A stretch of 48,568 bases of DNA from an uncultured Gammaproteobacteria bacterium (GTDB lineage Bacteria > Patescibacteriota > Microgenomatia > Levybacterales > GWA1-39-11), in assembly GCA_964593215.1 (NCBI GenBank), contig CAZQIA010000001.1, forward strand, positions 1-48,568. The letters run 5' to 3'. A program made the position numbers and the translations under genes. The notes beneath the pieces are model-generated. The model worked only from the letters and a program-made list of their open reading frames with translations. It did not search any database and had not been told where the DNA came from. This document shows, piece by piece, positions 26,303 to 27,952 of this stretch. Within the stretch, counting starts at the first letter, position 1, and each line of letters begins with the position of its first letter.

Positions 26303-27778
26303 ATGGCAAGCTTAGAGGCATACCATCCACGGCTCCAGGTAACTAAAGGAAATGAGGGGGTGTATCAAAGAAATCTTCAGCCCGTTTCTGCTGAGTTAAA
26401 CAAAGAAGCGCCAGAGCTTGCAAGAGAAGTGATGCGCATTAAGGCAAAAGGAAAAGAAGAGCAAAGAATCTACAATTTAGAGGGAACGGGGTTTCATGTA
26501 GCGGGTCAGGTAAGGCTTTTAGTAGACAATTACAAAAAAGGCATTCCTCTATCTGACTCCATATCTCAAATAGAACAAGATACAAATGGATTTAACGTGG
26601 AATACCTGAGAGAAGCTCCTGTATTTGCAATTCCTTTAGCGTTAGTCCAGAGGGATGGAGAAAAGAAGGTTGTGGGAAAACTTTATGGAGAAAAATTATG
26701 GGAAGACTCAACTGACGAGATTGAAAGAGAAGGGGTAGTAAAAGAGTCTGTTAAAAAAATTGCGAAAGGTCTTTCCAGTGCAAAACCGGGAACAACTTTT
26801 ATGTTTCACAGCGGGGAGGGGTGGAGTAACTACCAGGCAAAAGGGGGAGAGTTGGAGCAACTTAATCGGGACGATGTGGCAAATGGTGTTTCTCAAGAAG
26901 TAAATTATCCTGATTCTCAGACATACATTATTACGGTAAATAGAGATGGTTCCCTAACTGCAGTGACCTTAAAAGCGCACATGAGTTTATCTCAAAGTGA
27001 AGAGTTTGTAGCAAGATTAAAGGGACAAGAAAAGCCGGAAACAGCTCATTTATCTGAAAAAGTGAGGATAAAACAGGTAGCAGGAAATGTTCTAGAATTT
27101 AGTCCAAAAGATAATATAAACGCTAAATCTATAGCAAAAGTAATGAAGCATATGTTGGGAAATACCGCTTATATAGATAGTCTTGGTAGGGCTCGGACAT
27201 TTGATGAGATGTTTTTTATGCTTCAAAACCCTGAAAGTCTTGAAAAACTTGACGAAGTCACAAAAAAGCTGTCACAGAAGTTTGCTGATTTTACGAAGTG
27301 GAGATTAGGTTTTCTTGATGATGACGTGAGTCAGGATTTACAAATAGCATTGGGGCATACCATCTTAAAACTTATGCACGAAACACGAGGAGGATCTGCT
27401 GAGCAAATTTTAGTTGAAGGAGGTATGCACACAGTGCACAAGCCTGAAAGTCTTCCTTTTGATCCGCGCGCTATTCTTCAGGAAATGCAGAAGCTTCCAG
27501 GATGTGCTGGGGGAGGAATAAAAGTGGACTCAGCAGGTGCGCCAAGAGCTGGAGTTTTGGGACAGGATTCGCATGGTTCCTCTGAGGTAGTATGTCCCGA
27601 TTGCGGAAGGGTGAATAAAAGAATGCCGGGGCAGCTTTTGCCTAAATGCGGGGCTACGCTTTGTCAAAGTAAAACTATTGCGTGTGAGCCTGTTAAAATT
27701 ACATCGCAAGAAAAATCAGAAGGAAAGGTGACTTCAATTCAGAAAAAACCAGCGCAAACCGCTAAAAAAGCAGCATAA
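26303..27778 (+). CDS. Hypothetical soluble 491-aa protein with C-terminal zinc ribbon and Lys-rich tail
   Basis: Starts 1 nt after the pduO stop. The C-terminus reads VVCPDCGRVNKRMPGQLLPKCGATLC. No TM helix and no family recognised. Confidence 0.65.
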   Translation: MASLEAYHPRLQVTKGNEGVYQRNLQPVSAELNKEAPELAREVMRIKAKGKEEQRIYNLEGTGFHVAGQVRLLVDNYKKGIPLSDSISQIEQDTNGFNVEYLREAPVFAIPLALVQRDGEKKVVGKLYGEKLWEDSTDEIEREGVVKESVKKIAKGLSSAKPGTTFMFHSGEGWSNYQAKGGELEQLNRDDVANGVSQEVNYPDSQTYIITVNRDGSLTAVTLKAHMSLSQSEEFVARLKGQEKPETAHLSEKVRIKQVAGNVLEFSPKDNINAKSIAKVMKHMLGNTAYIDSLGRARTFDEMFFMLQNPESLEKLDEVTKKLSQKFADFTKWRLGFLDDDVSQDLQIALGHTILKLMHETRGGSAEQILVEGGMHTVHKPESLPFDPRAILQEMQKLPGCAGGGIKVDSAGAPRAGVLGQDSHGSSEVVCPDCGRVNKRMPGQLLPKCGATLCQSKTIACEPVKITSQEKSEGKVTSIQKKPAQTAKKAA

Positions 27779-27781
27779 ATT

Positions 27782-27952
27782 ATGGAAGAAAAATGTGAGG
27801 TTTGTTTTAAAATCAAATGCAAAGGGTGTGGTTGGGAACCAACTGATCAAGAAGTAATTCTTATTCAAAAAGAAATCCTAAGTAAATGTCCGATTTGCTC
27901 ATGGAGACCTTCTAATTCAGTAAGCGCTCCAAAAACCAACAGAGCAGTGTGA
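27782..27952 (+). CDS. Small Cys-rich (zinc-ribbon-like) protein, 56 aa, below the ORF-track cutoff
   Basis: My own translation: MEEKCEVCFKIKCKGCGWEPTDQEVILIQKEILSKCPICSWRPSNSVSAPKTNRAV. It has the spacing CxxC..CxxC..CxxC. The ATG is 3 nt after the upstream stop. Confidence 0.4.
   Translation: MEEKCEVCFKIKCKGCGWEPTDQEVILIQKEILSKCPICSWRPSNSVSAPKTNRAV

Follow-up and report, generated by a model that had tools for sequence, protein, structure and literature searches.

The window analysed here is a stretch of 48,568 nucleotides from a bacterium of the class Microgenomatia (contig CAZQIA010000001.1 of assembly GCA_964593215.1), whose genome (G000) is 1.09 Mb in size and 94.6% complete. It carries a cobalamin (vitamin B12) riboswitch followed by pduO, by a gene for a 491-aa protein of no annotated family, here called X, and by an open reading frame (ORF) for a 56-aa, six-cysteine mini-protein (Table 1). 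The TAA stop codon of pduO ends at 26301 and the ATG of X lies at 26303, a gap of 1 nt; the TAA of X (27776-27778) is followed by ATT and then by the ATG of the 56-aa ORF at 27782, a gap of 3 nt. Given these gaps, and an aptamer that exceeds the Rfam gathering threshold and precedes the genes in the same orientation, pduO, X and the gene of the mini-protein make up a single compact unit behind the sole cobalamin riboswitch detected in G000, in which RF01689 matched once and RF00174 not at all. These three genes are the complete B12 regulon found in this genome. An earlier interpretation of the DNA from its letters only (the sequence-only reading) had put the 491-aa ORF 1 nt after pduO and the 56-aa ORF 3 nt after that, had placed all three behind a putative cobalamin switch, and had assigned a B12-dependent ribonucleotide reductase (RNR) to the window. 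Its coordinates and spacing were exact, the aptamer passes the gathering threshold, and NrdJ was confirmed as a class II RNR by TIGR02504 (593 bits against a cut-off of 400).

Between the aptamer and pduO, a CCUCC...GGAGG hairpin with a following run of U's covers the pduO Shine-Dalgarno (SD) sequence, which, as read from the sequence, is itself the 3' arm of the stem. This stem was also detected by a terminator scan, and the minimum-free-energy fold shows an alternative pairing. Repression of the pduO-X unit by the ligand is putative, the only visible element being this SD-sequestering, terminator-like hairpin. Within RF01689, the env8 aptamer shows a preference for hydroxo- or methyl-cobalamin.

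Table 1. Features of the riboswitch-pduO-X unit and its upstream context in the window.
Feature	Coordinates	Strand	Basis or remark
nrdR (context)	22595..23044	+	TIGR00244, 185 bits; repressor of RNR genes
nrdJ (context)	23052..25532	+	Adenosylcobalamin (AdoCbl)-dependent class II RNR; Cys-rich C-terminal tail
B12 riboswitch aptamer, RF01689 AdoCbl-II	25615..25683	+	Rfam, 39.9 bits against a gathering threshold of 36.5
Expression platform hairpin, AAACCUCC-CGGGAAAAA-GGAGGUUU then U's	25724..25751	+	Terminator-like, SD-sequestering; putative function
pduO, PduO-type ATP:cob(I)alamin adenosyltransferase	25753..26301	+	PF01923 (8.8e-54, 182.6 bits); TIGR00636 (175.8 bits, above cut-off)
X, 491-aa soluble protein, unannotated family, conserved riboswitch target	26303..27778	+	Homologue searches, alignments, AlphaFold2 models, gene contexts
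X loop P-G-C-A-G-G-G, residues 399-405 (C401)	27497..27517	+	Predicted flexible linker
X Cys4(+1) zinc ribbon, C431/C434/C449/C454/C461	27593..27685	+	C-terminal; conservation of ribbon cysteines
X Lys-rich disordered tail ending KKAA	27686..27775	+	C-terminus resembling a transfer-messenger RNA (tmRNA) tag
56-aa six-cysteine mini-protein, CxxC-x4-CxxCGW...CPxC[GS]W	27782..27952	+	Partner of X

A word-indexed search with X retrieved ten relatives, one of them annotated as a hypothetical protein from a Candidatus Levyibacteriota metagenome-assembled genome. An exhaustive HMMER search with an alignment of these ten then gave 400 cluster representatives (clusters defined at 50% identity) at E<=1e-3 and 210 at E<=1e-30. 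Because the X family is this large and the mini-protein is conserved in 14 loci, the pattern of sequence conservation indicates that both ORFs are real genes and not chance frames. Highly divergent X-like genes (304-470 aa) were also found; these retain the motifs W-x-S-P-P-G and G-(S)-C-G-x-x-G as well as the ribbon, and lie mostly directly after pduO in genomes that were negative with the first X profile, those of family f3 being solitary behind their own switch. One divergent gene was tied to the X family by hhalign with 97.7% probability.

The riboswitch was found to accompany X and not pduO. Usable upstream sequence was available for 31 canonical X loci. In 23 of them an aptamer of Rfam clan CL00101 at or above gathering precedes X, and in 6 more a sub-threshold aptamer sits at the exact expected place; no aptamer was found at the remaining two, one of which was not rescanned in sensitive mode. 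The aptamers match three different Rfam models (RF01689, RF00174 and RF01482), and homologs of the window's aptamer sit at the same place in its relatives. In arrangement A the switch precedes pduO and then X, as in the window and its Levybacteria-like relatives (L001, L002, L004, L007, L009, L011, L012 and L015) and, with divergent X-like genes, at L062-L065. In arrangement B the switch lies after pduO and directly ahead of X (L013, L014, L027, L035, L038, L040, L055 and L066, with weaker cases at L036, L039 and L074). Arrangement C consists of the switch and X alone, and is seen in five genomes of family f9, one of f155 and two of f3. In the f9 genomes PduO is absent and nrdJ is followed by a CobA-type adenosyltransferase; no switch was found at the three of these five nrdJ-CobA loci that are fully covered. 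The link of X to the switch is thus not PduO-specific, since f9 genomes keep X alone behind its own switch beside a CobA-type enzyme.

The converse comparison gave the same picture. At pduO loci without an X-like gene a switch was present in only 2 of 13, each time ahead of another unassigned ORF and not ahead of pduO. Since the switch tracks X across arrangements and is mostly missing where pduO occurs without X, co-location of X and pduO in one operon does not account for its association with X. The regulon linkage is conserved in relatives and through rearrangement, in three arrangements and with three Rfam models, and X, not pduO, is the constant B12-riboswitch target across the class Microgenomatia. 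The sequence-only reading had proposed both ORFs as cobalamin-handling candidates; this constancy supports the B12 link and makes it stronger than had been claimed. At the two exceptional loci, a B12 aptamer after pduO precedes an 807-aa ORF followed by DUF4430 and DUF6580 genes (L080 4541-8079, genome G482) or a 564-aa Lys-rich protein (L077 4546-6324, genome G443). Neither the 807-aa nor the 564-aa ORF has a detectable relation to X, and both may be functional analogues of it.

We also asked in which metabolic setting X is found. In G000, NrdJ is the sole RNR found (a single PF02867 match), NrdD was not found, and no PF02310 B12-binding protein was found; NrdJ is the only recognisable B12 user found in this genome. 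Because of this, DNA-precursor synthesis in G000 appears to depend on imported cobalamin. In a class sample of 301 Microgenomatia genomes, with canonical X scored at E<=1e-10, PduO was present in 205 and canonical X in 18, representing about eleven families. NrdJ and an adenosyltransferase were found, in the genome or at the X locus, in 17 of these 18, so that homologs of X are not, as the sequence-only reading had named as a refutation, mostly in genomes lacking B12-dependent enzymes.

Several loci in the class carry a further pair of genes, for DUF4430 and DUF6580 proteins. Arrangement D, seen at L003 and L017, runs switch, DUF4430, DUF6580, pduO, X. The pair recurs at L003 (6200-7147), L017 (5159-6115), L013, L036, L037, L039, L073, L078 and L080, and lies inside the riboswitch-controlled unit wherever the order is resolved (L003, L017, L080). 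The DUF6580 protein of L003 is strongly hydrophobic, and DUF4430 is a domain that we take to be transcobalamin-like. The pair is likely a B12 uptake module; no homolog of either member was detected in G000 by tblastn. Two further observations were made around nrdJ in relatives. At L069 (4524-5847, genome G488), genes for a DUF1653 protein, a CYTH domain protein and a NUDIX hydrolase lie between nrdJ and pduO. CYTH proteins form a triphosphate-tunnel family; as triphosphate is released by PduO-type enzymes, this CYTH gene may serve to clear that by-product. In L055 (2559-6017), L080 (550-3981) and L010 (2263-5886), NrdJ ORFs reach 1143-1152 aa or the matches are split by about 1 kb, which suggests that some relatives' nrdJ genes carry inteins.

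We then examined the X protein itself. X has no predicted membrane segment or signal peptide (maximum Kyte-Doolittle score over 19 residues 1.05; family median 1.02), in agreement with its earlier description as a soluble protein, and the C-terminal cysteine ribbon and Lys-rich tail described at the same time were likewise recovered. All six cysteines of X fall within its last 91 residues, C401 in the motif PGCAGGG and the other five in the ribbon. Across 146 aligned members, most with 20-30% identity to X, the near-invariant positions were G63, F64, E100, Y101, Y128, E141, R142, G144, S170 and G173 and, in the C-terminal part, G400, C401, G403, G404 and four ribbon cysteines. Conservation within the loop is 100% for G400, 99% for C401 and 89-95% for G403-G405, and the four ribbon cysteines are kept in 98-99% of members. 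The family thus shows enzyme-like invariant residues across members sharing only about 20-30% identity.

Two independent AlphaFold models, one of the window's X and one of a relative 24% identical to it (predicted TM-score 0.68), placed a folded core at about residues 35-365, which holds E100, Y101, Y128, E141, R142, G144, S170 and G173. In both models the core has a predicted local distance difference test (pLDDT) score of about 85-94 and the same order of secondary-structure elements, and the cysteine loop is disordered (pLDDT <50). Searches of Pfam, NCBIfam and PHROGs with X, the mini-protein and nine divergent relatives returned only sub-threshold zinc-ribbon matches and other noise; no family member examined has an above-threshold domain in these databases, and Pfam showed no informative fused domain in the ten longest members. 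A profile of the 146 members matched sequences in the PDB only at the ribbon, the matches being ordinary zinc ribbons of ribosomal proteins and polymerases. Foldseek gave nothing at E<=1e-3 (model 1 against PDB and BFVD, model 2 against PDB), and its weak matches were mutually inconsistent, to the DnaK substrate-binding domain for model 1 and to hydantoinase-B for model 2. The Rossmann-like B12-binding or CblC-like fold for which the sequence-only reading had proposed to look was thus seen in neither model. Clear homology to an unrelated function, which would have spoken against its proposal, was also found in none of these searches.

Three other identities for X were considered and rejected: a reductase or glycyl-radical protein, as X has no barrel and no RVxGY motif; a lipoprotein, as the LPGC at residues 398-401 has no preceding signal peptide; and a secreted binder, as a signal peptide occurs in 0 of 153 members. 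The C-terminus of X is KKAA, and a terminal -AA is found in 22 of 153 family members, compared with 6 of 802 (0.75%) among the genome's long ORFs. The tag encoded by the window's tmRNA ends in ...YAFAA, and the KKAA tail may be a built-in ssrA-like degron for fast turnover. At L004, a 130-aa ORF after X also ends in DKAA. In one relative (L012 7001-8248) X has an in-frame stop near codon 250 and the downstream mini-protein is intact, a possible pseudogene or assembly error. In another (L049 9153-10689, genome G200) a solitary X is immediately followed by an insertion of four short ORFs (92-137 aa).

The mini-protein had been overlooked by gene callers in the public records of relatives. Using tblastn, we found it directly 3' of X in 14 loci at 44-70% identity, including loci where X is only 25-28% identical to the window's X as well as some that have a divergent X-like gene. 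The mini-protein has the consensus C-x2-C-[FY]-K-I-x-C-x2-C-G-W-E...C-P-x-C-[GS]-W-x-P, and MAFFT lays the homologs' own ribbons onto it. Three family members (P0140, P0153 and P0026) carry the mini-protein module at their C-terminus in place of X's own ribbon, and these natural fusions speak for joint action of the two products. The X gene and the 56-aa ORF of the window share a reading frame (TAA ATT ATG), so that read-through of the TAA would mimic the natural fusions. In relatives the two ORFs overlap or differ in frame, and the relation is not kept in L002 or L007; because it varies in this way, read-through is not a conserved feature.

Taken together, a B12-linked role of X and the mini-protein is well supported, and the two would mark an undescribed B12-starvation function of putative chemistry. 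Our favoured reading, for which we judge the chances to be about even, is that X acts directly on cobalamin in its capture, processing or hand-off. We favour it because upper-ligand removal, cobalt reduction and protected hand-off lack recognisable genes in these genomes, and because X combines a conserved globular core with an invariant thiol carried on an adjoining flexible arm. X and the mini-protein would then be a cytoplasmic factor made when B12 is scarce, working on scavenged cobalamin that is in transit to the adenosyltransferase, of PduO or CobA type, and from there to NrdJ. As the X product would serve adenosyltransferases of both types, it would not be a subunit dedicated to PduO. 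The core (residues 35-365) would bind the corrinoid, with E100, Y101, Y128, E141, R142 and S170 as invariant polar residues. The Cys401 thiolate, on its Gly-rich arm, would ligate or attack the upper-ligand side of the cobalt, leading either to ligand removal or to metal reduction and a Co-S intermediate; we hold this exact chemistry, proposed by analogy, with much lower confidence than the direct role as such. The zinc ribbon and the homologous mini-protein would be docking or metal modules for the hand-off. When B12 is replete the riboswitch would halt synthesis, and in the members ending in -AA the tmRNA-tag-like tail may speed removal of the protein.

Several observations weigh against a direct action on cobalamin. 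X has no PF02310 match, no DxHxxG motif and, across the 146 members, no conserved histidine, and no CblC-, PduS- or BtuM-like match was seen in Pfam, the PDB profile search or the Foldseek matches listed. Most PduO-bearing genomes of the class lack a detectable X, a count of X that the divergent X-like genes raise. Six of the 29 aptamers called at canonical X loci score below the Rfam gathering threshold, and all X loci come from one bacterial class, so that they are not fully independent and conserved gene order inflates the counts. In genome bin G487 (L041, G487:C19, and G487:C125), canonical X lies behind an RF00174 aptamer on a 2.6-kb contig, and the bin otherwise holds two class III reductases (NrdD), with no NrdJ, PduO or CobA detected. 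This contig may be mis-binned, or may be a true counter-example to the NrdJ link. Such a counter-example would favour the main rival, a B12-sparing backup in which X never touches cobalamin and sustains DNA-precursor supply or replication by another route when B12 is lacking, for instance by aiding deoxynucleoside salvage or by protecting or regulating the idle reductase. The support for a B12 role is genomic context, and a gene repressed in the presence of B12 could equally be a backup of this kind; metE, nrdAB and nrdDG sit behind B12 riboswitches in other bacteria. The lack of a B12-binding signature fits such a backup, as does the retention of the switch by X where the adenosyltransferase is unregulated and elsewhere. 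However, X is co-transcribed with pduO in many lineages, in some together with the putative DUF4430/DUF6580 uptake pair, and all but one of the X-positive genomes carry NrdJ and an adenosyltransferase. X also lacks nucleotide-binding and kinase motifs, resembles no reductase, and at 45-55 kDa without an RNR barrel cannot itself be one. We therefore consider a backup role unlikely, though less so than the three explanations that follow.

An electron-transfer variant of the favoured reading, in which the Cys4 ribbon of X and the six-cysteine mini-protein would bind iron in the manner of rubredoxins and, as a functional analogue of PduS or flavodoxin, supply the electrons that bring cob(III)alamin and cob(II)alamin to the cob(I)alamin state needed by the adenosyltransferase, seems improbable to us. 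Adenosylation requires a reductant and none is recognisable in the operon, the CxxCG[WY] and CPxCG knuckles of the two ribbons are of the type found in rubredoxins, and a second copy of the ribbon module exists as a gene of its own, the module being able to stand in for X's ribbon in the fusions. Yet neither ribbon matches the Pfam rubredoxin family (PF00301), the profile matches are to ordinary zinc ribbons, X has no flavin or NAD(P) motif with which to accept electrons, and the mini-protein is missing in many family members, such as those at the f9 loci. Still less probable is a nucleic-acid-binding regulator that tunes expression or replication during B12 starvation through binding of DNA or RNA by the zinc ribbon and Lys-rich tail. 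The ribbon, the basic tail and the proximity of X to nrdR-nrdJ would suit such a role, but the basic tail is limited to the Levybacteria-like subgroup, no DNA-binding domain was detected with Pfam or NCBIfam, and the conserved part, a globular core of 330 residues whose invariant positions are enzyme-like together with an invariant cysteine loop, is atypical for a regulator. Finally, X could be peculiar to this lineage and unrelated in function, its only tie to nrdJ and pduO being an ancestral gene order. The restriction of all loci to one class with conserved gene order around nrdJ is what this would produce, but the switch has remained linked to X across three rearrangements, among them a move away from nrdJ and a replacement of the adenosyltransferase type, is mostly missing at pduO loci without X, and precedes X in the form of three different aptamer models. 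We give this last explanation hardly any credence.

These results describe a gene family that is consistently controlled by the B12 sensors of the ultra-small Microgenomatia and has no known relative, fold or motif; no description of it was found in full-text searches of the literature. The route of cobalamin from uptake to cofactor loading is known in good detail for humans (CblC, CblD, MMAB) but only poorly for bacteria, and bacteria of the candidate phyla radiation (CPR) are thought to live off other microbes. If X is a corrinoid-handling protein, it would add a new type of protein to those that process cobalamin and would be a marker of B12 dependence in CPR bacteria; if it is a B12-independent backup, it would show how such cells survive B12 starvation. 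Cys401, the set of E100, E141, R142 and S170, and the natural X-mini-protein fusions lend themselves to mutational and construct designs with recombinant protein.

Compared with known systems, a B12-riboswitch regulon beside B12-dependent metabolism is of a well-known regulatory kind, and its core protein X is of no described family or fold. Known cobalamin-riboswitch regulons (Rfam clan CL00101) comprise btuB, btuFCD, ECF-CbrT, cob/cbi genes, metE and nrdAB/nrdDG. The X loci share their regulatory logic and the aptamer families RF01689, RF00174 and RF01482, and differ from them in this core gene, which is often the only regulated gene in these genomes. The best Foldseek matches of model 2 were three related chains, hydantoinase-B-type subunits (ATP-dependent caprolactamase 6yra_B, acetophenone carboxylase 5l9w_A and acetone carboxylase 5svb_D; E 0.013-0.1, probability 0.38-0.66). 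With a TM-score of about 0.2, no match at E<=1e-3, no counterpart among the model 1 matches and no Pfam Hydantoinase_B signal, this resemblance between predicted and known structures is a lead only, and X is not assigned to that superfamily.

Two bacterial systems can be compared with the proposed role. In Salmonella the cobalamin reductase PduS, a flavin and [4Fe-4S] protein, is paired with a PduO-type adenosyltransferase; like PduS, X is an accessory protein encoded beside pduO that would prepare cobalamin for adenosylation. In contrast to PduS, X matches none of the PduS domains in Pfam, its cysteines are those of the loop and the ribbon only, and it also occurs with CobA-type enzymes and alone. 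BtuM is a membrane B12 transporter that binds cobalt via a cysteine and decyanates its substrate. It shares with X the riboswitch link and a single essential cysteine as a candidate cobalt ligand, Cys401 in the case of X, but it is an integral membrane protein, whereas X lacks hydrophobic segments and is not similar to BtuM.

A further functional parallel is with CblC (MMACHC) and CblD (MMADHC), the cobalamin processing and hand-off chaperones that work alongside MMAB, the human PduO-type adenosyltransferase. X has no sequence or fold similarity to CblC or CblD (Pfam, NCBIfam and the best 50 Foldseek PDB matches of each model), and differs from them in its zinc ribbon and mini-protein partner and in having no evident flavin or glutathione site; membership is not claimed. 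It is a rather doubtful proposition, which we put forward tentatively, that X is a fold-orphan, glutathione-independent functional counterpart of these eukaryotic proteins, in which Cys401 would make it a protein-thiol enzyme-chaperone that strips or reduces the upper ligand of scavenged cobalamins and passes a Co-S intermediate to whichever adenosyltransferase is available, with the mini-protein as docking or redox partner. If this were true, X would be the key B12-starvation gene in bacteria whose DNA synthesis relies wholly on imported B12. CblC and CblD are cytoplasmic, and X too would act between uptake and a PduO-type adenosyltransferase; their thiol chemistry at the upper ligand and their Co-S(Cys) hand-off intermediate provide the model for the role proposed for Cys401.

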